This document shows positions 4,417-52,916 of a stretch of 53,224 nucleotides of DNA, piece by piece. The position numbers and the translations under genes are program-made. The DNA comes from Verrucomicrobiia bacterium (GTDB lineage Bacteria; Verrucomicrobiota; Verrucomicrobiia; Limisphaerales; UBA11358). The notes below the pieces were generated by a model. The model worked only from the letters and a program-made list of their open reading frames with translations. It was not told where the DNA came from and ran no database searches. Position 1 is the first letter of the stretch, and each line of letters begins with the position of its first letter. The DNA lies in contig DATCDZ010000063.1 in the NCBI GenBank assembly GCA_036510395.1, positions 1 through 53,224 on the forward strand, written 5' to 3'.

Positions 4417-4983
4417 ATGGCCGTGATGCGACCAGACCAAGCCAGCGCGGAAACGCCCAGGTGGGAAACGATCGAGGAGCTGTTCACGGCTCTGGAGGCT
4501 CCGCTGTTGAGTTATGGCCTGCGGCTGACCGGCGAAATCGGCCTCGCGGAGGACGTGGTTCAGGAAGCGTTCATGAAACTTCATTTGCAATTCAAGGAAG
4601 TCCGCGAGCCGCGACGCTGGCTCTACCGCACCGTCCACAACCTCGCGCTTAACCAGCGCCGCCGCACCGCAAAAATCGTCTCGTTCAATTCATCCTCGTC
4701 CGTTGGAAATGAAAATTCTCCCGTCACCGCCGACACCGCCGATCCCGCGCCGCTGCCCGACGAACAAATCTCCCGCATGGAAGGCATCGGCCTCGTGCGC
4801 TTGAGTTTGGGAACGCTTGACGACCGCAGCCGCGAATTGATCCGTTTGAAATTCAACGACGAACTTTCCTACCGTGACATCAGCGCGCGCACTGGAATTT
4901 CCATCAGCAACGTCGGCTACATTTTGCACAACGCGCTGAAAACCATCGGCGATGAACTCGCCAGAACGGGAGTTGTGCCATGA
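4417..4983 (+). CDS. ECF-type RNA polymerase sigma factor (sigma-70 regions 2 and 4)
   Basis: 188 aa. Region 2-like 'EDVVQEAFMKLH...RRWLYRTVHNLALNQRR'. Region 4 HTH 'LIRLKFNDELSYRDISARTGISISNVGYILHNALKTI'. An anti-sigma-like gene follows. Confidence 0.85.
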   Translation: MAVMRPDQASAETPRWETIEELFTALEAPLLSYGLRLTGEIGLAEDVVQEAFMKLHLQFKEVREPRRWLYRTVHNLALNQRRRTAKIVSFNSSSSVGNENSPVTADTADPAPLPDEQISRMEGIGLVRLSLGTLDDRSRELIRLKFNDELSYRDISARTGISISNVGYILHNALKTIGDELARTGVVP

Positions 4984-5095: not shown

Positions 5096-8000
5096 ATGAA
5101 CCCCGAAAAACCATCACGCGAAGAAATCAAGGCGAAGCTGACCGTGCTGCTGCTGGGCGAACTGCCGGCGGAAGAGGCGCAGTTGCTGCGCTGGGCGATT
5201 TCGCAGGATGCCGCGCTCGGCCAATTGCACGACCGGCTGAAGCTCACGGTTGGTTTCGTGCGCGAAGTTGCCGCGCATCCGGCGGAAGCAGTGCCGGCGC
5301 AGACCGAGCCGCTCAAACTTTCCGGCGAAAAGCGGGAAAAATTGCTCGCGCATTTCAAGACGGTTCGTCCGATTATATTTCTGCCGCCGCTACCGCCGAA
5401 ACGCCGTCAATTCATCTCGCTCTTGGAAATCGCGGCGGTGTTGACGATTGTCGCGGTGCTGGCGGCGATGCTGCTGCCGGCTTTGAGTTCGGCCAAACGC
5501 AAGGCACAAAATATTTCCGCCATGAATCTGGCAAAAGAGCGGGCACTGCAAAATCAAGAAGATCAAAATTCCATGTCAGTGCTTCGGGCAAAAGCAGCGG
5601 CAAACACATTGGATTTGGCAATTCCAAAAACTTCATTTGCTGCGACTGCAACTCCGCCGTCGGCTTCACCGTCCGACGAATCGGAACGCCGTGTGGCTGG
5701 ACTCGAAGCGCATTTTCAAAACGCCAATCCATCCGGGGCGCAGGGAGCGTTGACGCAAAATGTTGGAGACGCCTGGAAAAACCAGACGAAAATCGTTCTG
5801 CCCGCAGGCGGAAATGAAGATAAAGGACTGGCCGCAGCGAGTCCGGCTCCGCCCGAACTTTCAAGCATGGATTTTTCCGGTGGTGCCGTGGCGAGCGACC
5901 GAAATGCTTATGCCGTGCATCTGGATTTTGCCAGTCCTACAGAAGTGACGGAGGCATTGCAGAAAACATTTCCAAGCGGCAACAACTCGCCCGGCGGTGT
6001 ATCGCAGCCACAATCCGACGTGTTGATAACCCGCCAGCAGCAAATGAATTCCTCCAGTTCTTCGTCCACTGCTTCAGGCAACGCAAACGGAAATTCCGGT
6101 GGCAACCCGTTTACGGCACGTTTTGGCGAGCTTGATGGAAATGGCGGCGCACGCGGTGGCGCAGGTGCCGGAGGATTTGGCGGCGGCGGACGCGGTGGCA
6201 GTTCTGCTGGTCCAGTTGGCAACTGGCAAACTAGATCAACTGTAACTTTTTCTCCGTCGCCGGTGGAAAAGCTGAGAATCTCCGGTTCGGCGCGCGAACT
6301 GGAGAACTCAACTCTTTCAGGAGAAGTTGCAGTGAATGACACCGGCGCGCAACCGTCTGACGACAACGGTCGATTTTACGCAAGCACGAAGTCCTATTCC
6401 GATGCCGACCAAAAATCGAAAGAGCCGATGCTCGGTGACTCACCCGCAGCGGGCAGACTTTTTCAAAACGGTCCGGCAAACAAGGGCTTTTACGACGACA
6501 ATTATTCCACAACAGCCAACAGGCCGGCTCCTGGGGTTGGCGGCAGCAGTCCTTCGCTCACCGTGCCGGCTTCGGCGGCCAATCCTTTGAGTGCGTTTCC
6601 GGGGAACACGGCAAGCGGCGGCGGCGCTTCTTCGGACTCGGATCAGTTTATCACCAGCGGACTGCGCAATTCCCCTGAACGCGCTCCTGTTTTTGACACC
6701 ACCGCTGGCACGCGAGTTTTAGGAGATAATACCATCACTTACAACTACGGGAACCTTGTTGGCACATCCAAAATTGACACCGGCAAATTTTATTCCGGCC
6801 AGACGATGGACGTTGCCAGAGGCCAGCTATATTTGATGGCCACCAACAAATTTGAAAACAACGGAACGATTGCGACAACGGATGCCGGCACATTGGTTCA
6901 GGATGGAAAATTGCTTTACGAAGCGGGCAACGTTGACGAATCCGAAGCCAAAGTGCGGCAGGCTTTGAAAAAGGATCCGAACAACGAAGCTGCATTTTAT
7001 TATTTGAATCTGGACGAGCAGGCGCGTTTCGACCGCGATAAGCGTGCGCAGCAAACCGCTTCGCAAGCCGCATTGATGCCACCGCCGCCGGTTGCTCAAA
7101 ATTCCATTCAGGCGCGATTGACGGACGTTGGTGCTCAAAATCAAGCGGTTGCTTCGTCCGCTGCCGCGCCAACCGTTTCGCCATTACCAGTCGCAGCCAC
7201 GCCGCCGCCGGTTGTTGGTGAACCAAAGGCAAAACTCGGAATTGATCTCCAAGGTGGCACTACTGTTACAGTCAATTTGGATCGCACTGCAAATTTACCC
7301 GCGTCCGCGTCAGCCGAAGACCGTCCGCTTCCCAAAACACCTTCGCCCGCGCCGATTCCGCAGCCGGAATTTTTGACGGGCGACAATGCGTTCTCCACCT
7401 TTTCGCTCAATGTCAGCGATGTGTCGTTCAAGCTCGCGGCGGCGAGTTTGCAAAAGAACGTCATGCCGGACGCGGCGTCCATCCGCAGCGAGGAATTCAT
7501 CAACGCCTTCGATTACCGCGATCCCGAACCGGCGGCCGGCGTGCCGGTGGCGTTCGTCTCGGAACGGGCGCGCGACCCGTTTGCGCATAATCGCGATATG
7601 CTCCGTTTTTCCATCAAGACCGCCGCCGCCGGCCGTGAGGCCGGTCGTCCGTTGAACATCGTTTTGCTCCTCGACAATTCCGGCTCGATGGAGCGCGCCG
7701 ACCGCGTGGCGATCATCCACGAGGCGTTGAAGGTGCTGGCGTCGGAGCTTCAGCCGCAGGACACGTTGAGCATCGTCACCTTCGCGCGCACGGCGCGGTT
7801 GTGGGTGGACGGCGCGCGCGGCGACCAGGCGGGCACGGCGGTCAATCAAGTCAGCGATCTCACTCCCCAGGGCGGCACGAACTTGGAAGAGGCGATGAAT
7901 CTTGCCTACGCAACCGCCCGCCGCCATTACCTCGCCAATGGAGTGAACCGCGTCGTCCTGCTTACCGACGGCGCGGCCAATTTGGGAAACGTAAATCCCG

Positions 8001-8725
8001 ATGCGTTGAAACAAAAAGTCGAGTCGTTCCGCAAACAGGGCATCGCGCTCGACTGCTTCGGCATCGGCTGGGAAGGCTACAACGACGATCTGCTCGAAGT
8101 GCTTTCGAGCAATGGCGACGGCCGTTACGGTTTCATCAACACGCCAGAAGCGGCGGCGACGGAATTTGCCGCGCAGCTCGCGGGCGCGTTGCACGTCGCG
8201 GCGGAGGACGTGAAGGTGCAGGTGGAATTCAATCCGCAGCGCGTGATTTCGTGGCGGCAGATCGGCTACGCGAAGCATCAATTGACGAAGGAACAGTTCC
8301 GCGACAACACCGTGGCCGCCGCGCCGATGGCCGCGCGCGAGGCGGGCAACGCGCTTTACACCGTCGAAATAAATCCGCAGGGCGAAGGGCCGGTGGCGAC
8401 CGTGCGCGTGCGTTTTCGGATTCCCGGCACGACGGACGTGAGCGAGCACGAATGGGAAGTGCCGTTCGACGGCACTGCGCCCGCGCTCGAAAAATCCAGC
8501 CCCGCGATGCGCCTCGCCGCCACTGCCAGCGCGTTTTCCGAATGGCTCGCAGCGAGTCCGTATGCGCAGGAGGTGACGACCGACCAGTTGCTGAATTATC
8601 TGAACGGCGTGCCGCAAATTTACGGAGCCGACCCGCGCCCGAAACAACTGGAGACGATGATCCGCGAGGCGCAGAGCATTGCGGGCCAACCGAGCCGGCC
8701 GAATCGGTCGAGTGGAGGATTTTGA
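5096..8725 (+). CDS. Anti-sigma-like N-domain, pilin-like membrane helix, long low-complexity region, TPR, and YfbK-type von Willebrand A domain fusion protein
   Basis: 1209 aa. The N-terminus 'KLTVLLLGELPAEEAQLLRWAI' resembles anti-sigma N-domains. Residues 105-138 'QFISLLEIAAVLTIVAVLAAMLLPALSSAKRKAQ' form the membrane helix. The C-terminus carries 'FSTFSLNVSDVSF...SEEFINAFDY', the vWA MIDAS motif 'LLLDNSGSM', 'GGTNLEEAM', 'VVLLTDGAANLG', and a DUF3520-like 'VKVQVEFNPQRVISWRQIGY'. Confidence 0.75.
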   Translation: MNPEKPSREEIKAKLTVLLLGELPAEEAQLLRWAISQDAALGQLHDRLKLTVGFVREVAAHPAEAVPAQTEPLKLSGEKREKLLAHFKTVRPIIFLPPLPPKRRQFISLLEIAAVLTIVAVLAAMLLPALSSAKRKAQNISAMNLAKERALQNQEDQNSMSVLRAKAAANTLDLAIPKTSFAATATPPSASPSDESERRVAGLEAHFQNANPSGAQGALTQNVGDAWKNQTKIVLPAGGNEDKGLAAASPAPPELSSMDFSGGAVASDRNAYAVHLDFASPTEVTEALQKTFPSGNNSPGGVSQPQSDVLITRQQQMNSSSSSSTASGNANGNSGGNPFTARFGELDGNGGARGGAGAGGFGGGGRGGSSAGPVGNWQTRSTVTFSPSPVEKLRISGSARELENSTLSGEVAVNDTGAQPSDDNGRFYASTKSYSDADQKSKEPMLGDSPAAGRLFQNGPANKGFYDDNYSTTANRPAPGVGGSSPSLTVPASAANPLSAFPGNTASGGGASSDSDQFITSGLRNSPERAPVFDTTAGTRVLGDNTITYNYGNLVGTSKIDTGKFYSGQTMDVARGQLYLMATNKFENNGTIATTDAGTLVQDGKLLYEAGNVDESEAKVRQALKKDPNNEAAFYYLNLDEQARFDRDKRAQQTASQAALMPPPPVAQNSIQARLTDVGAQNQAVASSAAAPTVSPLPVAATPPPVVGEPKAKLGIDLQGGTTVTVNLDRTANLPASASAEDRPLPKTPSPAPIPQPEFLTGDNAFSTFSLNVSDVSFKLAAASLQKNVMPDAASIRSEEFINAFDYRDPEPAAGVPVAFVSERARDPFAHNRDMLRFSIKTAAAGREAGRPLNIVLLLDNSGSMERADRVAIIHEALKVLASELQPQDTLSIVTFARTARLWVDGARGDQAGTAVNQVSDLTPQGGTNLEEAMNLAYATARRHYLANGVNRVVLLTDGAANLGNVNPDALKQKVESFRKQGIALDCFGIGWEGYNDDLLEVLSSNGDGRYGFINTPEAAATEFAAQLAGALHVAAEDVKVQVEFNPQRVISWRQIGYAKHQLTKEQFRDNTVAAAPMAAREAGNALYTVEINPQGEGPVATVRVRFRIPGTTDVSEHEWEVPFDGTAPALEKSSPAMRLAATASAFSEWLAASPYAQEVTTDQLLNYLNGVPQIYGADPRPKQLETMIREAQSIAGQPSRPNRSSGGF

Positions 8726-10210: not shown

Positions 10211-10299
10211 CACAACGAACGTCACAACTTTTTTACAAACCTTTGACCCGCGCCTGACAGCTTGCGGTCGTTGCGACTGCTAAAAGAACAGATTGAATT

Positions 10300-13200
10300 A
10301 TGAAAACAAAAATCGCCGGCTTATTTTCCGTAGCGCAGAATTGCATTCTGCCGTATCGCAGATTTTTAATCTGCGGCACGGCCGGACTTCAAAAGCGGTT
10401 TGGAATGTTGGATGCCGTGCCGGATGCAATCCGGCGATACGGCAGATTGAAAATCTGCGCTACGCTTTGCGCGCTGGCGTTCCTCGCCACCTCGTGCAGC
10501 ACCATGACGCCAACGCAGTCGCGGAACGTGCCGGTCGGTGGCACCGCGGTGTCGGATTTCAAACTCGTGGGCGATCTGGGCAGTAATGACATCGCGGCGT
10601 TCACGCTCACGGCCAATGTGCGTGTGGAAAATCCATCGGGCGGCTCGCTCGAACTGCTGGCCGGCCCGGTCGCGCTCACAGCCATCGGCGCACATCCGAA
10701 TTGGCAGATTCAGGCAAGCGACAACAAATTCATCGCGACATTTGATCACGGCGGCGTTTTTCCCATTCAGATAAAATTCAACGCCGCCGTCGGGAAGAAT
10801 GACGGCTGGAGCGCGGTCAATTTTCGCGTTGCGCCGGGCATCTTGCAACCCATCGTGCTGCAAGGCCTGCCGGCGGACACGCAATTTCAGTTCGCCAACG
10901 CCGCGCGACCGGAACGCAGCGGCACAAACTTCACGAGCTTTCTGCAAGTGGACGGCGCGGTGAAATTTTCGTGGAAACAGGCGCGCCCCGAAGCCGAGGG
11001 GAAACTTTTTTACGCCGCCGAAATGGAATCGCAGATCAGCATCAGCCCCGGACTCATGAGCCAGACGGCTCTGCTCGACGGAAAAGTGATGCAGGGCGAA
11101 ATGAATCAAATCACGTTGCGATTGCACGGCGACGGCGAAGTGACGCGCGTGGCGGGCGACGAGGTGCTGGCGTGGAACGTCCTGCCGGCGACGAATTCCG
11201 CCGACCGCCTGCTGGTCGTGCAGTTCAACCAGCCGCAGAAGAACGCTTTTGAAATCCAAGTGCAAATGCAAACTCCGCTCGGCGCGTTTCCGCAGTCGGC
11301 GGACGCGATGCAAATCCAGCCGGAAGGCGCAACGCGGTTCGCCGGGCATTTCCGCGTCGTGAACGACGGCGCGGTGCGGCTGGAAGTGTTGCAGGCGAGC
11401 GGGCTTTCGCAGATTTCGCCGGAACAATTTCCCGAGAGCGACGCCGCGCGCGCGGCGTTTCGCGTGACGGGCAGCCAGCGTTTTGCGTATCAATTTTCCA
11501 GCCCGGATTTCGCGCTGAAAATCCAGGCGGACCAAATTTTGCCGGAAGTCTCGGTCTCGCAACTGCTCGCCTATAATCTCGGCGACAGCGAACTCGCGAT
11601 TGACGCGGAGATCGAACTCGACATCCGCGACGCACCGTTGCGCGAAGTGGTGCTGAATGTTCCCAAGGGCTACGCCGTCGCGAGCCTCAATGCCTCGGGC
11701 ATGAGCGATTATTTTTTGCGCGACGGCGAACCGGATTCCGAATTGCGGATCGTTTATGGCCAGCCGGTTTCCGACCGCCAAGTGATCCAACTCCGGCTCG
11801 AACGCAATCAAGCGCTCGGTGAAACGAATTGGACTTTGCCGCGCATTGAAGTGGCGAAGGCAAAATCCACGCGCGGATTCGTCGCGGTGTCGGCGGATGC
11901 GGGTTTTCGTTTGACGGCGGAACACACGCAGTCATTGACCGAAACATCGACGGCATTTTTCCCGCGCAAGGTTGCCGGAATTCAAACGGCGTTTCGTTTG
12001 AGCGACGCCGACTGGCGCGCGACGCTGCGCGCGGAACGTCTGCCGCAGACCGTTTCGGCGGATGTGTTCCATTTATTTTCCATCGGCGAAGGCATCGCGT
12101 ATGGCAGCAGCGTAATGAATTATGTCGTGAGCGGCGCGCCGATGGCGGCGTTCCGCGTGGAATTGTCGGATGAATATTTCAACGTCGAGTTCACCGGCAA
12201 GGACATTCGCGGCTGGCAGAAAACTACGAACGGCTATCTTGTGCAATTAAATACGCCGGTGGCCGGCGCTTACACGCTGCTCGCAACTTACGAGCGGCCG
12301 TTCAAACCGGCGGGCGAGACGCTCGCGTTCACCGGCGCGCGCCCGCTCGACGCGCAATCCGAGCAGGGCCACACCATCATCATCAGCGCGTATCAATTTC
12401 AAGTGAAGGCCGTGGATGTCTCGCCTGGACTGCTCGCGCTGGAACCGGCGGAAGTGCCGTCGGAATACCGGCTCTTTTTCGACGCGCCAATTCTCGCGGC
12501 GTATCAGTATTCGACGCGGCCGTTCGATTTGAAACTCGCATTGAGTCCGCTCGCGCAGGGTAATTCGCTCAATCAAGTCGTGGACCGCGCGGCGCTCGAC
12601 ACGCGCATCTCGAAGGAAGGCCAGGTGCTGACCGACGCGAGCTACTTCGTGAAAAACCGCGGCAACCCGAATTTCCGGCTGACGCTGCCGCACGGAACGG
12701 ATTTGTGGTCGGCCACGGTCAACGGCGCGGCGGTCGTGCCGGTGATTGACGGAACGAATGATTTGATTCCGTTGCCGCAGCGCGCCGACCCCGACGCCGT
12801 GCTGATGATTGATTTGAAACTGGCCGCGACCAATTCAGACAGCGCCACGCGCGCGACTATCGCCGCGCCCGTCGTGGCCGCGCCGGTGATGCTCGCGCAA
12901 TGGAAGATTGAACCGGACGAAGGCCAGCGCCTTGATTATCTCAAAGGTTCGCTCACGCCGGTCGGCGGCGTGACTGACGTTTCAGGTTTCGCGCAACTGG
13001 CGCGGTTATTCAGCGGAGACGAAAGCGGACGCGCGGTGGTTTCGCTTTTTGCGGCGCTGGTATTGATGCTGCTGGCGATGCTGGTGTGGCGTTGGACGGT
13101 TCGTGAAGGCGTCCACAAATTCAGCGCACAGCATATTTTTGGGGCGATGATCGGGCTGGCGGCGATTGTGCTGGCGGCTTTTGTCTTCGCAAATCTTATG

Positions 13201-16200
13201 GACGGAGCAGGCCTTGAAAAAAGTTCCGCGCCGCGCGACGTCACGTTCCTCGCGCCCGTGCAACAGTCCGGCGACGCGTTGACTGTGGAAGTGGCGAATG
13301 TTTCCGAGACGGCTTCGACGGTTGGATATGCCGCGCCGATTTTGCTTTTGGTGCCGGCATTGATTGTTTTGGTCATCGGCTGGATTAAACAAAATTCTTT
13401 GGCGCGAATTCTTGGCTGGATCCTGCTTGCGTGGGCGGCCTTGCGCTGGCAGAACGGCGCGGCGGCGTTTTTTGCCGTGATCGCCGCGTTTCTATTTTTG
13501 CAAGTTTTGATTCCGGCGCTGAAACAATTGTGGCAGTTGCCGGAAAAATCAAAGTCCGAATTGCCGCCGCCGGAAAGCGGTGCGCCGCGCGCCGTCGCGT
13601 CGCTGATCGGTTTGCTGCTGCTTGGCGGCGCGATGGCCGGGCATTGCGAAAGCGCACTGGCGCCCGCCGAGTCCGTCACGCAGCAAATTCGCATCGAAGA
13701 CCAGTTCGCGCTGGCGACGGCGAAAATCCGCTGGCAGGCGGAGAAAGGCCAGGTGCTGCCGCTGCTGTTCGAGCCAGCGGTGATGACCAAAGTTACTTAT
13801 CCGGCGAGCGCGCTGAAACTTGTCCAGGATTCCGATGGTTCAAAACGCGCGCAGCAATTGATCGCACAAAGCAGCGGCACGTTCGACATCGAGGTGCAAT
13901 ATCAAATCCAGGTGACGAAGCTCGACAATCAGAGCGGCTTCACGCTGCCGGTGCCGTCCGGGGTTATCAATCAATTGAATCTCACGCTCGTGAATCTGGA
14001 CGTGGACGTTTTTTCGCCGCAAGCCATTTCCGTGCAGCGCACCACGAGCGGCGCGAACACCGTTGCGACGCTTGTGCTGGCGCCGGGAAATAATACCTGG
14101 ATCAGTTGGCAGCCGCGCAGCCGCGACGTGAAAAATGAGAAGCCGGTTTTTTACGCGGACATTTCGCAGCTTTATGTGCCGTCGGCGGGTGTGATTGAAG
14201 GCGCGCATTTTGTTTCCATCCGTCCGGCGCAAGGCGAATTGAACGAATTGATTTTCAACGTGCCAGCGGGGGCAACGATCACGGATGTCACCAGCGGCGA
14301 ACATATTTCCCCGGCGGATGGAAATTTACAACCGAACTTCCATTACGGACGGATCGTCTCGCTGTGGCGGTTTGATCCCGACACGCGCAAACTTCGCGTG
14401 ACTTTGAACCCGCCGCAATCACGGACGTTCGCAATCGTCATTCGGTCGCAAGTGGCGACTGGAACTTTGCCATTCGAGCAGCGCGTCGGATTGATTTCAG
14501 TTGAAGGCGCGGCGGGACAAATCGGCTTGCTTGGGGTCGCCACGGGAAATGAAGTTCAACTCGACGCCGTTGGCGCTGAAAAATTTTCGGCGATCAACCT
14601 GGAAGATTTTCCGAACGGAGCCGCGTCGGTGCTCGCGGCGCAATTTCCGGGACTGACTGTGCGACGCGCATTTCGTTATTCCGATTCGCAGGCGACGGTG
14701 TTGCTCAAAGCGTCGCCAGTCGAGCCGGACGTGCGCGTCGAGACGCAGGACACGCTTTCGCTCGGCGAAGACCGCACGGTGCTGGCCTCGGCCGCGAACG
14801 TCAACATCACGCGCGCGGGAATTTTCAAATTAAGTTTCGTGATGCCGCCGGGCTTTGACGTGGACACCATCAGCGGCGCGGCATTGAGCCAGTGGACAGA
14901 ATTGAAAACCGGCGCGGGCCGCATCATCACTTTGAACCTGTCCGGCGAGACGGAGGGCGAACAGCAATTCAACATCAGCCTGTCCGGGCCGGGCGTGAAG
15001 GCGACGAATGAATGGATTGTCCCGCAAATAATTTTGCGCGAGGCCGGCAAGCAGCGCGGGACTTTGCTCGTCGTGCCGGAACAGGGAATGCGTTTGCAGG
15101 CCGCGACGCTCGACGGTGTGTCGCAGCTTGACCCGCAAAAATCCGGCATCAGCCAGCCGGGCGTGCTGGCGTTCCGCGTGTCGCAGTCGCCGTGGAACCT
15201 CGCGCTGGACATCGAGCAGGTGGATCCGTGGGTTCAAGTGACGAGCCTGCAGAACGCGACCGTCAACGAGGCACAGGTGAAAATCGCCGCGAACCTGCAA
15301 TATCAAATTGAGAACGCCGGGCTGAAGGCGTTTCACGTTTTGATTCCGGCCAACGCATTGAGCGTGAATTTTCAGGGCGACCAGGTCGCCGGCTTTCAAC
15401 AGGTTGAAGGCGCGGTGACGAACGGTTTGCAGGAATGGGAAATCAAATTGCAGCGGCGCGTCATCGGCCAGTATCTGCTGCAACTGGCTTATCAAACGCT
15501 CATGCCCGACCAGTCGCCGGAAATCGTTTTGCGCGGCGTGCAGGCGGCGGACGTGAACACGCAGCGCGGCTTCGTGACCGTGCAATCCGGCGGACGGCTG
15601 CAATTGCGCGCGGACGACACGCCCGCGTCGCTTCAGCCCGCCGAATGGCAGGGCATCCCGCGCGCGTTGCAGCAGGATTTGCAGACGGTGTCGGCCGGTT
15701 TCGCATATCGCCTCGTCGAGCCAGATTTTCAACTGCCGCTAAAACTTGAGCGCCACGAGGCCGTGAAGCTTCTGCCCGCGCGCGTCAACAACATCACGTT
15801 CACGTCCGTGATTTCCGACACGGGCGTCATGCTGACGCAAGTGCGGCTGGAAATTCTGCCCGGCGACAAGCGCCTGCTGCATCTCACGCTGCCGAAAAAC
15901 GTGGACGCAAAATACTGGTTCGCGTTTGTGAACCAGAACGGCGTCTGGCCGTGGCGCGAAGGCGACGACATTTTAATCCCGCTCGAAGAACAGTCGCGCG
16001 GCAACCAGGCCATTCCGGTGGAAATATTTTTCAGCAGCGACGCCGGCAAGGCGGGCGCAGGCGCGCTCGATCTGGATTTGCTCGCGCCGAAATTTGACCT
16101 GCCGCTGGAAGACATCACCTGGCGCGTGTTCCTCAACGACAAGTGGCAGGTGAAAAAATGGAGCGGCACGCTGCAATTGCAGCAGCAGGAAATTGTTTCC

Positions 16201-16863
16201 ACGCCGGAGGCGATTGACCTTCAAAGTTATCTGGCGAGCGAATCCAGTTTGTGGCAGAAAAAAACGCAGGAAGCCGAACAAATGCTCGCGCTCGGAAATT
16301 CCGCGCTGCAAAACGGCGACCCGCAGCAGGCGCGGCGCGCGTTCCAGTCCGCCTGCGGGTTGTCGCGCAACGACGCCGCGTTCAACGAGGACGCGAGGGT
16401 GGAACTGAACAATTTGAAAGTCCAGCAGGCGTTGGTGGGATTGAGCGCGCGCCAGTCCGCCGTGAACGGCGACAACGACGCGCTCGGCAGGAAGTTCCGC
16501 GACCTGCGGAACAGCAAGAACAACAATTACACGCAGCAGGATGCCCAGCAGATCATTGACAGCAACAGCGCCGACGATAACGCGGCGTTCATGAAGCTGG
16601 CCGACAAGCTCGTCAGGCAGCAAGGCTACGCCGTGAGCAGCCCCGCCGTCATCCGCGCGAACATTCCCGAACAAGGCCGCCTGCTTACATTTAAGCGCTC
16701 GGTGGACGTGGATGAAGAGGCGGATTTGAACATCGGATTGCAAGTGTCCGCCGCCAAAGCCGCGTCGCAGAGCGTGCGTTTCTTCGTGTTGGCGATGACC
16801 GCGCTGGTGCTGGGCGGGTTCGGTCTGCTCGCGCGGGGATTTCGCGGCCAAAAATTTTCATAA
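10300..16863 (+). CDS. Giant (2,187-aa ORF) polytopic envelope protein of unrecognised family; lipoprotein-type signal peptide interrupted by a repeat element; alternative start ATG at 10405
   Basis: One uninterrupted ORF. It has two roughly 850-aa beta-rich halves, each ending in 'LTLP...VNG..V.P...G.D.LIPL'. Six hydrophobic helices (about 13030-13640) separate the halves. A TPR-like segment and a final TM helix ('FFVLAMTALVLGGFGLLA') lie at the C-terminus. Confidence 0.75.
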   Translation: MKTKIAGLFSVAQNCILPYRRFLICGTAGLQKRFGMLDAVPDAIRRYGRLKICATLCALAFLATSCSTMTPTQSRNVPVGGTAVSDFKLVGDLGSNDIAAFTLTANVRVENPSGGSLELLAGPVALTAIGAHPNWQIQASDNKFIATFDHGGVFPIQIKFNAAVGKNDGWSAVNFRVAPGILQPIVLQGLPADTQFQFANAARPERSGTNFTSFLQVDGAVKFSWKQARPEAEGKLFYAAEMESQISISPGLMSQTALLDGKVMQGEMNQITLRLHGDGEVTRVAGDEVLAWNVLPATNSADRLLVVQFNQPQKNAFEIQVQMQTPLGAFPQSADAMQIQPEGATRFAGHFRVVNDGAVRLEVLQASGLSQISPEQFPESDAARAAFRVTGSQRFAYQFSSPDFALKIQADQILPEVSVSQLLAYNLGDSELAIDAEIELDIRDAPLREVVLNVPKGYAVASLNASGMSDYFLRDGEPDSELRIVYGQPVSDRQVIQLRLERNQALGETNWTLPRIEVAKAKSTRGFVAVSADAGFRLTAEHTQSLTETSTAFFPRKVAGIQTAFRLSDADWRATLRAERLPQTVSADVFHLFSIGEGIAYGSSVMNYVVSGAPMAAFRVELSDEYFNVEFTGKDIRGWQKTTNGYLVQLNTPVAGAYTLLATYERPFKPAGETLAFTGARPLDAQSEQGHTIIISAYQFQVKAVDVSPGLLALEPAEVPSEYRLFFDAPILAAYQYSTRPFDLKLALSPLAQGNSLNQVVDRAALDTRISKEGQVLTDASYFVKNRGNPNFRLTLPHGTDLWSATVNGAAVVPVIDGTNDLIPLPQRADPDAVLMIDLKLAATNSDSATRATIAAPVVAAPVMLAQWKIEPDEGQRLDYLKGSLTPVGGVTDVSGFAQLARLFSGDESGRAVVSLFAALVLMLLAMLVWRWTVREGVHKFSAQHIFGAMIGLAAIVLAAFVFANLMDGAGLEKSSAPRDVTFLAPVQQSGDALTVEVANVSETASTVGYAAPILLLVPALIVLVIGWIKQNSLARILGWILLAWAALRWQNGAAAFFAVIAAFLFLQVLIPALKQLWQLPEKSKSELPPPESGAPRAVASLIGLLLLGGAMAGHCESALAPAESVTQQIRIEDQFALATAKIRWQAEKGQVLPLLFEPAVMTKVTYPASALKLVQDSDGSKRAQQLIAQSSGTFDIEVQYQIQVTKLDNQSGFTLPVPSGVINQLNLTLVNLDVDVFSPQAISVQRTTSGANTVATLVLAPGNNTWISWQPRSRDVKNEKPVFYADISQLYVPSAGVIEGAHFVSIRPAQGELNELIFNVPAGATITDVTSGEHISPADGNLQPNFHYGRIVSLWRFDPDTRKLRVTLNPPQSRTFAIVIRSQVATGTLPFEQRVGLISVEGAAGQIGLLGVATGNEVQLDAVGAEKFSAINLEDFPNGAASVLAAQFPGLTVRRAFRYSDSQATVLLKASPVEPDVRVETQDTLSLGEDRTVLASAANVNITRAGIFKLSFVMPPGFDVDTISGAALSQWTELKTGAGRIITLNLSGETEGEQQFNISLSGPGVKATNEWIVPQIILREAGKQRGTLLVVPEQGMRLQAATLDGVSQLDPQKSGISQPGVLAFRVSQSPWNLALDIEQVDPWVQVTSLQNATVNEAQVKIAANLQYQIENAGLKAFHVLIPANALSVNFQGDQVAGFQQVEGAVTNGLQEWEIKLQRRVIGQYLLQLAYQTLMPDQSPEIVLRGVQAADVNTQRGFVTVQSGGRLQLRADDTPASLQPAEWQGIPRALQQDLQTVSAGFAYRLVEPDFQLPLKLERHEAVKLLPARVNNITFTSVISDTGVMLTQVRLEILPGDKRLLHLTLPKNVDAKYWFAFVNQNGVWPWREGDDILIPLEEQSRGNQAIPVEIFFSSDAGKAGAGALDLDLLAPKFDLPLEDITWRVFLNDKWQVKKWSGTLQLQQQEIVSTPEAIDLQSYLASESSLWQKKTQEAEQMLALGNSALQNGDPQQARRAFQSACGLSRNDAAFNEDARVELNNLKVQQALVGLSARQSAVNGDNDALGRKFRDLRNSKNNNYTQQDAQQIIDSNSADDNAAFMKLADKLVRQQGYAVSSPAVIRANIPEQGRLLTFKRSVDVDEEADLNIGLQVSAAKAASQSVRFFVLAMTALVLGGFGLLARGFRGQKFS
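10329..10464. mobile_element. Family E nested palindromic element (about 135 bp; termini GTAGCGCAG...CTGCGCTAC) inserted in the 5' end of the giant gene
   Basis: The 30-nt terminal arms are 'GTAGCGCAGAATTGCATTCTGCCGTATCGC' and its imperfect complement 'GCGATACGGCAGATTGAAAATCTGCGCTAC'. It contains three GCAGAWT...AWTCTGC mini-hairpins and an inner inverted repeat CTGCGGCACGGC/GCCGTGCCGGA. Confidence 0.8.
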
Positions 16864-23806: not shown

Positions 23807-23840
23807 CCAATCTGTGTTTCATCTGTGAAAATCTGTGGCT
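23807..23840. repeat. Family C half-element, right flank (inverted relative to 23175-23204)
   Basis: 'CCAATCTGTGTTTCATCTGTGAAAATCTGTGGCT'. Its reverse complement closely matches the left arm of the hairpin at 40368-40431 over the first ~29 nt. Confidence 0.8.
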
Positions 23841-23848
23841 AAATAATT

Positions 23849-40356: not shown

Positions 40357-40367
40357 GCACGGTTTTT

Positions 40368-40431
40368 GCCGCAGATTTTCGCAGATGAAACACAGATAGA
40401 ACATCTGTGTAAATTTGTGTCCATCTGTGGC
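40368..40431. repeat. Family C complete hairpin between convergent genes
   Basis: 'GCCGCAGATTTTCGCAGATGAAACACAGATAGAAC' faces 'ATCTGTGTAAATTTGTGTCCATCTGTGGC'. The TAG stop of the 474-aa gene abuts its end. Confidence 0.8.
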
Positions 40432-41866: not shown

Positions 41867-41930
41867 GTAGGAGTCGAGGTCACGAGACTCTAATTTATTT
41901 TAGTCACAGACTCCTTACGTCGTCTCCTAC
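41867..41930. repeat. Family B hairpin element, copy 1 (GTAGGAGTCGAGGTCACGAGACTC ... GACTCCTTACGTCGTCTCCTAC)
   Basis: An imperfect palindrome whose terminal CTCCTAC contains the TAG stop (41927-41929) of the upstream gene. Related copies lie at 43496, 44175 and 51123. Confidence 0.8.
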
Positions 41931-42358
41931 GTCATCAAAGTTTCAAAGCGCCGTTCGCTGCTTGGTCGCGGCGAAAATGATTTCTGCGGCTCGGCAATGC
42001 GCGGTTCATTGGACCCGATCAATTCGGCCAGCAATTTTTCCTGCTGACGGAACGCCAGGATCATTTCCGGCGATGGCGCCGGAGATTTCCGCGCCATCAT
42101 TTCAGCCGGGTCGCGCTGCGAGAAATTGACGGCGAAAATCAAAATCCAAACGGCGGCCAAACCCGTCCAAATCCGGCGGCACGGAAAAATCAATTCGCGC
42201 CAAAGCAAAAGTAGGACAGGCGTCGCGCCTGTCTCTGATTTTTCTTTTTCAAATGGAGACAGGCGCGACGCCTGTCCTACAATTTCACGGCGGATCGCAT
42301 CCAATTTCGGCTCCACGTTTTCGTGACGGGCAAATAAAATTTCTCTTGGCGTTTTCAT
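41927..42358 (-). CDS. Small single-pass membrane protein, putative anti-sigma partner; contains family A element copy 2
   Basis: Its start overlaps the sigma-factor stop (ATGA at 42355-42358). It has a TM helix 'IWTGLAAVWILIFAVNF'. The anti-sigma role is inferred from position only. Confidence 0.55.
   Translation of the reverse strand: MKTPREILFARHENVEPKLDAIRREIVGQASRLSPFEKEKSETGATPVLLLLWRELIFPCRRIWTGLAAVWILIFAVNFSQRDPAEMMARKSPAPSPEMILAFRQQEKLLAELIGSNEPRIAEPQKSFSPRPSSERRFETLMT
42211..42280. repeat. Family A palindromic element, copy 2 (perfect 25-bp stem, 20-nt loop), inside a reading frame
   Basis: GTAGGACAGGCGTCGCGCCTGTCTC (42211-42235) is the exact reverse complement of 42256-42280. Confidence 0.9.
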
Positions 42359-44174: not shown

Positions 44175-44243
44175 GTAGGAGACGACGTGAGGAGTCTCAC
44201 TATTCAAAATCAAAAGTTTAAGCCTCGTTACCTCGGCTGCTAC
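44175..44243. repeat. Family B hairpin element, copy 3 (opposite orientation), flanked by AAATT/AAATT
   Basis: 'GTAGGAGACGACGTGAGGAGTCTC ... AGCCTCGTTACCTCGGCTGCTAC'. A 5-bp direct repeat AAATT lies at 44170-44174 and 44244-44248. Confidence 0.8.
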
Positions 44244-48718: not shown

Positions 48719-51103
48719 CTATTTCTTCAAACGGTAAAACATCGCGCCGCTTGAAATCGAATTCGTAACAACGTAGTTGTTTCCAACGATGACCGGGGAT
48801 GCTGCCGCCGACCAGACTGATGTTGCCGACAATGTGGTGGAATTTTGCAGGCTAAAGCCGGTCGCGTTCGTTAGCCAAAAAAGAACGATTTTATTTCCCG
48901 CAGACTGGAAACCAAGTATCGGCAAAGTGTAAATCACGGTGATGGTGCTTTGGTTCGCGTTGCCAGCGGTGTCGCGAGCCGCGATGGTGACAACATTCGT
49001 TCCGGTTTGCAGCGAGACGCCCGTGATGCTCCAAGCGGTGGTGCCAGTTGCAGTGCCGTTGTCGCCACGATTGTTGCTCCAAGTCACTTGGGCAATGCCG
49101 ACAATATCGCTGGCCGTGCCGCCAAAATTGATGTTGCCGGAATAATTGGTGTAAATCAGAAGCGTTGTCGGCGAAGTAATGTTTATCGTCGGCGGCATGG
49201 TGGCGTAAATCACCGCCAATGTGGCTTGGCCGGTATTTCCGGTGGCATCGTGCGCTGTAACAGTGATTGTGTTCGTTCCGCTTTGCAGGGCAACGCCGGT
49301 AACGCTCCAAGCGGTTGTGCCGGTTGCGGTGCCGCTGCCGCCACGATTATTGCTCCAAGTCACCTGCGTCACGCCAACATTGTCGCCCGCCGTGCCACCG
49401 AGATTGATGCTGCTGACGTTGGTGGAATAAAGCGCGCCAGTCGTCGGTGAAGTGATGCTGATGGTTGGCGGCGTCGTGTCCGGCGGATTGTAGATGACTG
49501 TGAGGGCGGCTTGCGCAGTGTTGCTCACCGTGTCGTAAGCCGTGACTGAAATCACGTTGGTGCCGCTCTGCAAACCGATGCCATTGGCGATCCACGCCGT
49601 TGTTCCGCTGGCGGTGCCGCTGCCGCCGCGATTGTTGCTCCAGGTTATCCGCGCAACTCCAAGAGTGTCGCTGGCAGTGCCGCCCAGATTTATGCTGCCG
49701 GAAGCGGTTGTGTAATTTGAAGCCGTTGTCGGCGAGGTAATCGCAATCGCCGTGTTCAATGCAGTCACAAGCCCAACCTGATAGCCGCCGGATGAAGGTT
49801 GAGTTAAAACGTAACCGCCTGAAATTGAATTTGAAAATGCCATGTATGCCGTGCTGGCGCCCGCGACGGAGTCGGTCAATTGGATGCCGCCGCAACTCGC
49901 GTTTAGTTTTGAATAAGAATAGGTGCCGATGCCGTTCAATCCTCCGCCACTGATTGATGTTATGGTGTAACCGTTCCCTGAAACAGCCGTTGAAAAAGTG
50001 AAGCTGCCATTGGCAGCATACGGGTAGACACCGCTCGTCACAGTGATATAAAAACCTTGCCCGGCGATTGAATTGGGAACTGGATCCGTGAGCGTGGCAA
50101 AATCGCCGGTTTGGGTGTATTGCCCAGATGTTCCGGTGCTTAAAGCGTAGCTTCCCAAGAGCGGAGTGAAATAAAAGAAACTGCCTTTGATTGAACCGTT
50201 GATGCTGTCGGAAAAATTGATTGTTCCAGCAGCGCCATTTCTCGAATAAGAATAGCTGCCGCTGCCGCTGGTGACATCTCCAAGGCCGATCACCTGATAA
50301 CTGCTTCCCGAATTGGCTGGCAGAAAAAGAAAATAGCCGCTGCTGGCAAGAGGCGGCGTGCCGGAGGATACGACGGCAAGAAATGTGTTTCCGGCAATAG
50401 AAGAAGGTGCCTGCGCTGTTAAGAGTGCTATGTTGCCAAACTGGTAGTTACCTGAGGAAGGCTGTGTTGCAAGATAGTCGCCGGACACCGAATTTGAAAA
50501 AACCAAATACGCGGTTTCGCTGCCTCCAACCGAGTCGTTTAATTGGATGATGCCACAGGTTGCGTTTGGTTCGGAATAAGAATAGGTTCCGTAGCTGTTT
50601 GTTCCTCCGGCGCTGATTGCTGTGGTCGTGTATGTGCTTCCTGAAGTGGCAACTGTAAATACAGCGCCGTCGTCCTGCACACTGATATAAAATTTTTGTC
50701 CGACAATCGAAGTCGGAACCGGGTTCGTGAACATGATGAAGTCGCCATTTTGGTAGCTGCCTAAAGCAGGCACTGTAACAGAATTCGTTCCGGACAAAGA
50801 ATTGGCAAATACAAATTTTAGATTTCCAGAAATGCCTGGAAGGGTGAAAGCTGCGGTGCCGGTTGCGCCGGAAGCCGTATAAGAAGAATATGTGCCGGGT
50901 TCGGTTGAACCATCTTCGTTAAAGATTTGCAAGCCGTTGCCCGAATTTGCCGGCACGAAAAGATAAAAGCCGAATCCATCGCCGCCTGTGATTTCCACGC
51001 CAAAAGTTTTTCCGGCGATAGAGGCGGATGCTTGCGCATTCGCCGAATCAAGCGACAGCACAACCATCAAAGCCACCGCAATCGCGAGAATTTTTCGTTT
51101 CAT
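48719..51103 (-). CDS. Secreted multi-repeat surface protein (two large N-terminal repeats, three Ig-like repeats, C-terminal '...FYRLKK' module)
   Basis: ATG at 51103 gives the signal peptide MKRKILAIAVALMVVLSLDSANA. The track N-extension (to 51166) is translated family B repeat. Confidence 0.8.
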   Translation of the reverse strand: MKRKILAIAVALMVVLSLDSANAQASASIAGKTFGVEITGGDGFGFYLFVPANSGNGLQIFNEDGSTEPGTYSSYTASGATGTAAFTLPGISGNLKFVFANSLSGTNSVTVPALGSYQNGDFIMFTNPVPTSIVGQKFYISVQDDGAVFTVATSGSTYTTTAISAGGTNSYGTYSYSEPNATCGIIQLNDSVGGSETAYLVFSNSVSGDYLATQPSSGNYQFGNIALLTAQAPSSIAGNTFLAVVSSGTPPLASSGYFLFLPANSGSSYQVIGLGDVTSGSGSYSYSRNGAAGTINFSDSINGSIKGSFFYFTPLLGSYALSTGTSGQYTQTGDFATLTDPVPNSIAGQGFYITVTSGVYPYAANGSFTFSTAVSGNGYTITSISGGGLNGIGTYSYSKLNASCGGIQLTDSVAGASTAYMAFSNSISGGYVLTQPSSGGYQVGLVTALNTAIAITSPTTASNYTTASGSINLGGTASDTLGVARITWSNNRGGSGTASGTTAWIANGIGLQSGTNVISVTAYDTVSNTAQAALTVIYNPPDTTPPTISITSPTTGALYSTNVSSINLGGTAGDNVGVTQVTWSNNRGGSGTATGTTAWSVTGVALQSGTNTITVTAHDATGNTGQATLAVIYATMPPTINITSPTTLLIYTNYSGNINFGGTASDIVGIAQVTWSNNRGDNGTATGTTAWSITGVSLQTGTNVVTIAARDTAGNANQSTITVIYTLPILGFQSAGNKIVLFWLTNATGFSLQNSTTLSATSVWSAAASPVIVGNNYVVTNSISSGAMFYRLKK
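48920..49741 (-). repeat. Three tandem coding repeats (95, 92 and 87 codons) of an Ig-like unit
   Basis: 'ITSPTT..Y....S.IN.GGTA.D.VG...VTWSNNRG..GTA.GTTAW...G..LQ.GTN...V.A.D..GN..Q..L.VIY' occurs three times. Confidence 0.85.
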
Positions 51104-51122
51104 TTTGTTCCTTCGTTTTTCC

Positions 51123-51200
51123 GTAGGAGACGACGTCAGGAGTCTCTGAATCATTTCCGGTTTCATATTTTAATCAGAGTCTCGTCACCTCGACTCCTAC
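51123..51200. repeat. Family B hairpin element, copy 4
   Basis: 'GTAGGAGACGACGTCAGGAGTCTC ... GAGTCTCGTCACCTCGACTCCTAC'. The terminal CTCCTAC contains the hicA TAG stop (51197-51199). Confidence 0.85.
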
Positions 51201-52213: not shown

Positions 52214-52299
52214 TTTTACTCTGCCGTCGCCAACTCCATGTCGCGCGTGTAATACAAAATCCGGCCGCAGCTTGAGCAGGTCACAATCTCCTTCTGGGC
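52214..52299. repeat. 86-bp direct repeat, copy 1: an orphan duplicate of the last 27 codons plus stop of the COG1579 gene
   Basis: It aligns without gaps to 52831-52916 at an offset of 617 nt, with 6 mismatches. On the minus strand it translates to AQKEIVTCSSCGRILYYTRDMELATAE*. Confidence 0.9.
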
Positions 52300-52830: not shown

Positions 52831-52916
52831 TTTCACTCCGCCGTCGCCAGTTCCATGTCGCGCGTGTAATACAAAATCCGGCCGCAGCTTGAGCAGGTCA
52901 CGATCTCCTTCTGCGC
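52831..52916. repeat. 86-bp direct repeat, copy 2: the functional 3' end of the COG1579 gene
   Basis: See 52214-52299. Confidence 0.9.

Follow-up and report, generated by a model that had tools for sequence, protein, structure and literature searches.

A GTAG-type REP cluster within the signal peptide of a giant lipoprotein gene in an uncultured Verrucomicrobiia bacterium

A stretch of 53,224 nucleotides from a Verrucomicrobiia bacterium (contig DATCDZ010000063.1 of assembly GCA_036510395.1, hereafter the window) carries a predicted giant lipoprotein gene at 10300-16863 on the forward strand (2187 aa), whose signal peptide is interrupted by a 134-nt palindromic element at 10330-10463. We found that this element is an insertion, and we assign it to the clusters of repetitive extragenic palindromes (REPs) that are headed by GTAG and mobilised by a REP-associated tyrosine transposase (RAYT), resembling bacterial interspersed mosaic elements (BIMEs) and REP doublets forming hairpins (REPINs). 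The explanation that we regard as probable is that the cluster inserted recently, and without a target-site duplication (TSD), into the hydrophobic h-region of the signal peptide, and that it is translated from the ancestral ATG as an extension of the n-region that is cleaved off during export.

Filled and empty sites of the giant lipoprotein gene

The giant open reading frame (ORF) has no Pfam domain and has orthologues in many metagenome-assembled genomes (MAGs) of Verrucomicrobia. Its translation starts MKTKIAGLFS-VAQNCILPYRRFLICGTAGLQKRFGMLDAVPDAIRRYGRLKICAT-LCALAFLATSCSTMT, of which the ancestral start codon and first ten codons (MKTKIAGLFS) occupy 10300-10329 on the forward strand, while the part behind the element begins LCALAFLATSC and comprises what is left of the former signal peptide (LCALAFLATS) plus the codon of the lipobox Cys at 10495-10497 (together 10464-10497, forward strand). 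A search with the first 700 aa returned 163 homologues, almost all from Verrucomicrobia MAGs and at most 87% identical, and the query coverage did not exceed 94% in any of the best 120 of these 163. The orthologues have ordinary 20-aa lipoprotein signal peptides such as MKAKIAASILCALVFLATSC and MKTKIASALLCALAFLATSC, which fit the pattern MKTK / IAASILCALVFLA / TSC; they share the conserved ...FLATSCSTMT and do not carry the 45 codons present in the window.

A metagenome scan with a 29-mer from downstream of the element gave seven contigs, which together with the closest orthologue contig (L120) made eight relatives with an empty site (L120, L123-L129). In all eight, the leader (about 78 nt) and ATGAAAACAAAAATCGCC are retained but the element is missing; their first 18 coding nucleotides are identical to those of the window, and their signal peptide is 20 aa long, leaving the window with a net gain of 46 codons (138 nt). 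The insertion point lies inside the original h-region and not at its margin, so that this region is split as IAASIL|CALVFLATS. The insertion into the signal peptide that the first-pass annotation had proposed is thus seen against empty sites both in the orthologues and in eight close relatives. That annotation had described a 135-bp element whose exact deletion would restore a 21-aa signal peptide. The in-frame insert of 45 codons was confirmed, and its removal does join the signal peptide, but the conserved core measures 134 nt and the eight relatives all have 20 aa rather than 21. A length of 134 nt is not a multiple of three; the last of the 45 codons, ACG, takes one flanking base.

The insertion is a recent one, because eight close relatives share the leader and the start codon yet are without the element, and the four perfect hairpins of the window copy are consistent with a young insertion. 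In the L120 contig (ena:ERZ25039472 contig_12562), the giant gene is split into short called genes (1046 aa and fragments), which suggests frameshift errors of that assembly; the protein lengths in the homologue listing are therefore unreliable.

Upstream of the start codon, the 5' leader or promoter region (10222-10299, forward strand) is nearly invariant among the relatives (alignment A3) and contiguous with the start codon, and thus the 5' end of the gene is intact. Six relatives share this region (TCACAAnTTTTTTACAAACCTTTGACCCGCGCCTGACAACTGGCGGTCGTTGCGACTGCTAAAAGAAC...) almost unchanged and diverge farther upstream. A conserved promoter or leader may be present here, possibly one that depends on an extracytoplasmic function (ECF) sigma factor, since an ECF sigma gene (4417-4983) and a gene for a VWA/YfbK protein (5096-8725) lie upstream. 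A Shine-Dalgarno motif was seen, on reading the sequence, neither at 10300 nor at the in-frame ATG at 10405 within the element, and a scan for promoter- and terminator-like sites around the element gave none above chance. The giant ORF is intact over its 2187 codons and 70-87% identical to its orthologues, and the gene is probably functional.

A family of four-hairpin elements with a partner transposase

The window copy was recovered at full length by nhmmer (model positions 1-134, E = 2.8e-31) and is built of four hairpin units and a variable spacer, as defined in alignment A2 (68 sequences). The head GTAGC (10330-10334) precedes hairpin SL1 (10335-10351, GCAGAAT-TGC-ATTCTGC, a perfect 7-bp stem), and the inner head GTATC (10353-10357) precedes SL2 (10358-10374, GCAGATT-TTT-AATCTGC); both hairpins show covariation in the family. 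Beyond the central spacer (10375-10418), SL3 (10419-10435, GCCGGAT-GCA-ATCCGGC), the C-type partner of the A-type SL2, is followed by GATAC (10436-10440), and SL4 (10442-10458, GCAGATT-GAA-AATCTGC) by GCTAC (10459-10463). All four hairpins are perfect. The spacer holds the in-frame ATG that had been noticed earlier (10405-10407); its columns are unconserved in A2, and the consensus is without an ATG. The imperfect terminal inverted repeats of the first-pass annotation were also borne out, as arms of 31 nt (10329-10359 and 10434-10464) that are 90% complementary and 74 nt apart. Within 53 kb, a 30-nt arm pattern that tolerates up to three mismatches is found at these two arms only (expected 0.00 from 100 shuffles), and the predicted RNA fold reaches -74 kcal/mol as compared to -41.6 +/- 3.5 in shuffles (z = -9.4). 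Searching the whole window against Rfam at gathering thresholds gave no match.

A scan with the exact pattern GTAGCGCAGA-N8-CTGCCGTATCGC, restricted to one genome per species, placed the family in at least 119 loci, nearly all in Verrucomicrobia MAGs and often several per MAG, and a family model in nhmmer identified 161 copies, spread over 129 loci; of these copies, 108 are full length and one lies in the window. The element is hence a member of a dispersed repeat family, as had been anticipated. Full-length copies are most often 134 nt long (n=35), followed by 133 nt (n=20) and 132 nt (n=18), with a shorter class of 114-117 nt, and they follow the architecture GTAGC-[GCAGAxT-3 or 4 nt-AxTCTGC]-C-GTATC-[GCxGAxT-3 nt-AxTCxGC]-spacer-mirror image. 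Such a conserved length, 134 nt, suggests that the unit is the entire composite. Of 91 copies, 84 have GTAG as their head, and in 62% of copies a G directly flanks the element; no target motif is conserved beyond this G at flank +1, and candidate TSDs of 1-5 nt occur at chance counts in the 91 copies. A MITE (a miniature inverted-repeat transposable element), with terminal inverted repeats (TIRs) and a TSD, was considered and rejected, as the arms are TIR-like but there is no TSD and the partner transposase is of the Y1/RAYT type. Some family loci carry labels of other phyla, namely Bifidobacterium/Bifidobacteriaceae (L006, L031, L038), Alphaproteobacteria (L021) and Limnocylindrales (L025, L075); these are probably mis-binned contigs rather than cases of horizontal spread.

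In A2, the local hairpins are 97.6% paired, with 229 cells showing a double change as compared to 60 in shuffles (0 of 500 shuffles reached this number), and G-U pairs are almost absent from the four hairpins. Covariation that is restricted to Watson-Crick pairs points to a constraint at the level of DNA or of both strands, such as recognition by a transposase, and not to an RNA function at the locus. A single long hairpin was rejected as the selected structure, since its long-range pairs, although 83% paired, show no covariation. The two inner hairpins differ in 65 of 68 copies, one being of the GCCGA type and the other of the GC[A/G]GA type (A2 columns 31/43 and 93/105), and the inner units are non-complementary in 67 of 68 copies; the difference in type thus prevents perfect long-range pairing. 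This heterodimer rule for the inner units resembles the Y and Z REPs of BIMEs and, by analogy, may be a rule of the same kind.

Two ORFs of about 250 aa, L031:3342-4106 and L040:2793-3548, each lie between full-length elements and match the REP-associated tyrosine transposase model of NCBIfam, NF047646, with 92 and 88 bits, respectively (cut-off 80), as well as PF01797 (Pfam Y1_Tnp). A third, partial RAYT copy is located next to elements at L009:7802-7999, and the HUH and Tyr motifs are present in the RAYT proteins.

In-frame copies in other genes

In the two frames in which the TAG of GTAG is out of phase, about 62% and 56% of full-length copies contain no stop codon, and the family is therefore easily read through. 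Only a handful of copies lie inside convincing long ORFs. One is a 117-nt copy (L115:4482-4598) within an ORF that spans 2665 codons or more and encodes CARDB domains. Another is a 102-nt in-frame copy (L058:4145-4246, DATCBW010000320.1) at aa 1074 of an orthologue of the giant gene itself, located just after a hydrophobic segment. This orthologue is 70% identical to the window protein over 2170 aa, and the corresponding empty site lies in the window at 13642-13662 on the forward strand (between 13651 and 13652); the junction in L058 is precise, GAAA|GTAG...CTAC|CGGCG. In this one orthologous gene, the family has thus inserted in frame on two independent occasions. Long ORFs through copies in L043, L106, L100 and L088 were judged to be spurious frames of high GC content or upstream over-extensions and were not counted.

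The same arrangement as in the window was found in signal peptides of other secreted proteins. The signal peptide of an M16 zinc peptidase holds a 134-nt copy (L020:1567-1700) that is read in the frame seen in the window and gives the filled form MKNFYQMIMGGVFKN-[VAQ...RRYSRVQLCAT, 45 aa]-ILLLATALCFPASAQ as opposed to the empty form MKNFNQLILGGVLLLLSAFGFQASAQ. Among the best 120 M16 homologues, ten carry the REP family at this place, 17 carry a different repeat (NENSPAFQRR...SPEGT...PGVKTPGYFQLFLRNKG) and at least one a third; five proteins have an insert of 45 aa, and one has an insert of 44 aa. The M16 start codon overlaps the stop codon of an upstream M16 gene (ATGA) in L020, L130 and L131, and in all three, the loci checked as DNA, the frame is open from the ancestral ATG through the element, even in L130, where the gene caller picked a downstream ATG. 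Because of this overlap and the open frame, the ancestral M16 start seems to be still in use. In a group of CusB-like adaptors of resistance-nodulation-division (RND) systems around L096, the canonical, empty form is MNSKLKLIFAGTLLVAAIGLGVFAADN, and four proteins (P0241, P0247, P0259 and P0313) contain VAQ...RYGRLxVCAT directly before the h-region, again in the frame of the window; other CusB-like homologues have other repeat families at the same place. The insertions of the M16 and CusB-like orthogroups have persisted across proteins with no more than 68-88% identity, and in older M16 copies the inner hairpins have acquired mismatches while the frame was kept. A further, unverified candidate is L080, where a 114-nt copy stands between MRLIQTRRRASG and the h-region of a PPC-domain protein.

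The signal-peptide region of the M16 (P0121-P0160) and CusB-like (P0241-P0360) proteins is a hot spot with at least three to five unrelated repeat families, and partly deleted in-frame repeat remnants were observed, for example in the M16 signal peptides of P0141 and P0143. When the 45-aa translation of the element was compared by phmmer to 1.84 billion representative proteins, almost all of the 96 matches were ORFs of 57-280 aa, i.e. miscalled intergenic copies; in none of the 96 was the element followed by a hydrophobic core with 100 or more residues beyond it, so that this search is no measure of a bias towards signal peptides.

Based on these cases, we tentatively suggest that in Verrucomicrobia, REP clusters and other interspersed repeats may repeatedly find a safe harbour in cleavable signal peptides, both of lipoproteins and of secreted proteins, where they would be translated from the ancestral start as disposable n-region extensions. 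Such insertions would be nearly neutral, since the REP arm read in the VAQ...RYGRLxxCAT frame mimics an n/h junction.

Translation of the interrupted signal peptide

From the ancestral ATG at 10300 the frame is open through the element, and the ATG, the first six codons and the leader are all intact. The resulting N-terminus carries a net charge of +8 upstream of a 14-residue hydrophobic core (ICATLCALAFLATS), and the lipobox Cys is residue 66 when counted from this ATG and residue 31 when counted from the ATG at 10405. SL4 and adjoining bases (10432-10464) encode RRYGRLKICAT in the frame of the gene. According to the explanation that we favour, translation would start at 10300 and the 45 element-encoded residues would serve as an extended n-region, in which the 3' arm of the element would supply positive charges (RRYGRLK) and four apolar residues (ICAT) and in this way rebuild the h-region in front of the lipobox Cys. 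The earlier suggestion that a basic stretch recreates an n-region thus agrees with the RRYGRLK-ICAT junction seen here. Signal peptidase II would remove the whole pre-sequence and leave the mature protein unchanged, which we propose as the reason why signal peptides tolerate such landings. The internal ATG at 10405 may serve as an additional start, but is not required.

Several points weigh against this explanation. A lipoprotein signal peptide of 66 residues is unusual, and PROSITE-style rules for lipoproteins place the Cys no more than about 35 residues from the start. By itself, an open frame says little, as about 62% of copies lack a stop in this frame and one third of insert lengths are in phase. 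Frame retention as seen in protein databases is biased to open frames, since broken frames are hidden by gene callers, and only three loci were checked at the level of DNA. With a core of 134 nt, one or four junction bases are left unexplained, depending on whether the insert is taken as 135 or 138 nt. Finally, the 53-kb window is without a RAYT gene and contains a single copy of the family.

The most serious rival is that the original start and signal peptide were disabled and that the protein is now made from the ATG at 10405 (MLDAVPDAIRRYGRLKICATLCALAFLATSC), with a 31-aa signal peptide and an upstream open frame that is merely incidental. We consider this rather unlikely. This ATG is in frame and, being located in the spacer outside the four conserved hairpins, could be accessible; the 31-aa peptide has a net charge of +2 and a normal hydrophobic core, neither start is distinguished by a Shine-Dalgarno motif, and the upstream frame would be open by chance fairly often. 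Yet the ATG is specific to this copy and not a feature of the family, and the first seven residues it would provide (MLDAVPD) are without positive charge. Most of the other copies in signal peptides have no internal Met and are in phase with the ancestral start: at the protein level, an internal Met was present in two of ten (P0121 and P0122, which are closely related), and in the M16 genes the ancestral start is translationally coupled through ATGA. In the window, moreover, the ancestral ATG, the following codons and the conserved leader have all been preserved. The first-pass annotation had held that the insertion was tolerated because the element donates a new start; an ATG in a variable spacer, off the consensus, and the retained M16 start do not support this.

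Alternatively, the window may have caught a damaging or neutral hit in transit, where export of the giant lipoprotein is impaired and the gene is decaying, with an ORF that is intact only through youth. The insertion was seen in none of the sampled relatives outside this lineage, it is young, as its hairpins have remained perfect, and the signal peptide is atypically long, all of which would fit such a scenario. We find it improbable, since 2187 codons remain open at 70-87% identity to the orthologues, and since the M16 and CusB-like insertions have lasted across 68-88% identity with their inner hairpins decayed and the frame kept.

We assign a similarly small probability to a selected regulatory structure, in which the hairpin cluster would act as RNA or DNA, e.g. 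as a translation throttle, an mRNA stabiliser, an attenuator or a gyrase or integration host factor (IHF) site. A very stable fold lies 30 nt downstream of the start codon, and REPs have been reported to act post-transcriptionally, with REPs at 5' ends elsewhere thought to be non-coding control elements in the passages covered of PMC3733652. In contrast, the relatives do without the element, terminator- and promoter-like sites did not exceed chance, the covariation is Watson-Crick only with almost no G-U, and in older orthologous copies the inner hairpins have decayed.

A repeat-induced chimeric join in the metagenome-assembled contig, although repeats commonly cause misjoins in MAGs, is extremely improbable here, as the flanks are two halves of one gene (leader and ten codons on one side, the rest of the signal peptide and 2121 codons on the other) that are collinear with the relatives, and as other genes show the same architecture in independent assemblies.

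Other repeats in the window

Apart from the element in the giant gene, the window contains repeats of several other kinds. A second GTAG-REP family is present at 935-1006 and 42211-42280 as head-out dimers (GTAGGACAGGCGTCGCGCCTGTCTC ... GAGACAGGCGCGACGCCTGTCCTAC), and a third GTAG-headed palindromic family (GTAGGAGACGACGTCAGGAGTCTC...) at 41867-41931, 44175-44198 and 51122-51200, comprising two dimers and one single unit. The interspersed repeat ATCTGTGTTTCATCTGTGAAAATCTGTGGC occurs as inverted copies at 23810-23843 and 40364-40397, 16.5 kb apart. Diverged tandem repeats of approximately 276-285 nt and 330 nt (48929-49763 and 49773-50645) lie within an 815-aa ORF on the reverse strand (48719-51166), which suggests a repeat-domain protein. 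Near the end of the window, an 86-nt direct repeat (52214-52299 and 52831-52916; 93% identical, 617 nt apart) may mark a duplicated small gene.

Discussion

REPs tagged by GTAG, BIMEs and REPINs are reportedly mobilised by RAYTs. The family described here shares with the GTAG-REP/RAYT systems a GTAG head followed by a 7-bp stem-loop, inverted units around a variable spacer, many dispersed copies in related MAGs, without TSD, and a transposase gene flanked by repeats ("REPtron"). In contrast to a single REP or a simple doublet, its unit is a fixed four-hairpin composite of 134 nt with GTAGC outside and GTATC inside. The inverted arrangement and the predicted long hairpin of -74 kcal/mol are reminiscent of REPINs, whereas long-range covariation is absent.

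Within the passages covered, a survey of GTAG REP families that include the Planctomycetes-Verrucomicrobia-Chlamydiae (PVC) group named Opitutus terrae, a member of the Verrucomicrobia, as richest in intragenic GTAG REPs, reported that intragenic REP dimers and clusters encode 20-82 aa, described REPtrons, and noted an excess of REPs at the NH2 termini of ORFs that was suspected to be largely non-coding (Di Nocera 2013; PMC3733652). Unlike those NH2-terminal REPs, as far as these passages characterise them, the copies studied here have the ancestral start upstream of the element, translationally coupled in the M16 genes, and a specific link to signal peptides is not described in the same passages.

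The behaviour of the element is similar to that of the Rickettsia palindromic elements (RPEs), to which the first-pass annotation had likened it. In the parts of the literature covered, RPEs are palindromes of 100-150 nt that are found in frame in conserved genes and tolerated there (Ogata et al. 2000, via PMC2229807 and PMC3733652), NH2-terminal decorations by RPE-1 were reported to be expressed in vivo (PMC2229807, PMC3733652), and RPE-4 and RPE-6 are CGTC-type and specific to Rickettsia (PMC3733652). The comparison holds for the in-frame intragenic copies in large genes, including the giant-gene orthologue, but not for the family, which is GTAG-REP/RAYT: the element has no sequence relationship to RPEs, a GTAG head, a RAYT partner, no TSD and a host among the Verrucomicrobia. 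Membership in the Rickettsia RPEs was thus rejected on head and host. In-frame fusions have further been described for the enterobacterial elements ERIC and YPAL/RU-2, and YPAL forms part of the predicted signal peptide of Yersinia YPO1552 (Delihas 2007/2008; PMC2229807). These MITE-ORF fusions likewise involve small palindromic mobile elements with open frames fused to genes; unlike the element of the window, they are of the TIR/TSD type (TA duplication) and make putative new proteins, whereas here a conserved signal peptide is interrupted. In autotransporters, the extended signal peptide region (ESPR) is a long N-terminal extension in front of an otherwise normal n-h-c signal peptide, and does not prevent export. 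The ESPR offers an analogy as an N-terminal extension only, being a conserved motif with its own function and having no homology to the element.

The case of the giant gene reveals neither a new kind of element nor a new mechanism. New here are a composite of 134 nt and four hairpins, defined together with its RAYT partner for uncultured Verrucomicrobia, filled and empty sites that correspond reciprocally within one giant gene, and the evidence that NH2-terminal copies in secreted proteins keep the phase of a start that is demonstrably ancestral and, in one family, translationally coupled. The odd 66-residue N-terminus of the giant protein is explained, and start-codon and lipoprotein predictions will fail at this gene for a trivial reason. 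The findings suggest a rule by which intragenic REPs survive in parts of proteins that are cut off, such as signal peptides, or in loops; if it holds, it would be useful for the annotation of PVC genomes and for the question of how much n-region length the Sec/Lol pathway tolerates. If signal peptides are indeed safe harbours, they would constitute a hidden reservoir of mobile-element DNA in coding sequence, and would systematically cause starts to be mis-annotated and signal peptides to be missed in Verrucomicrobia genomes.

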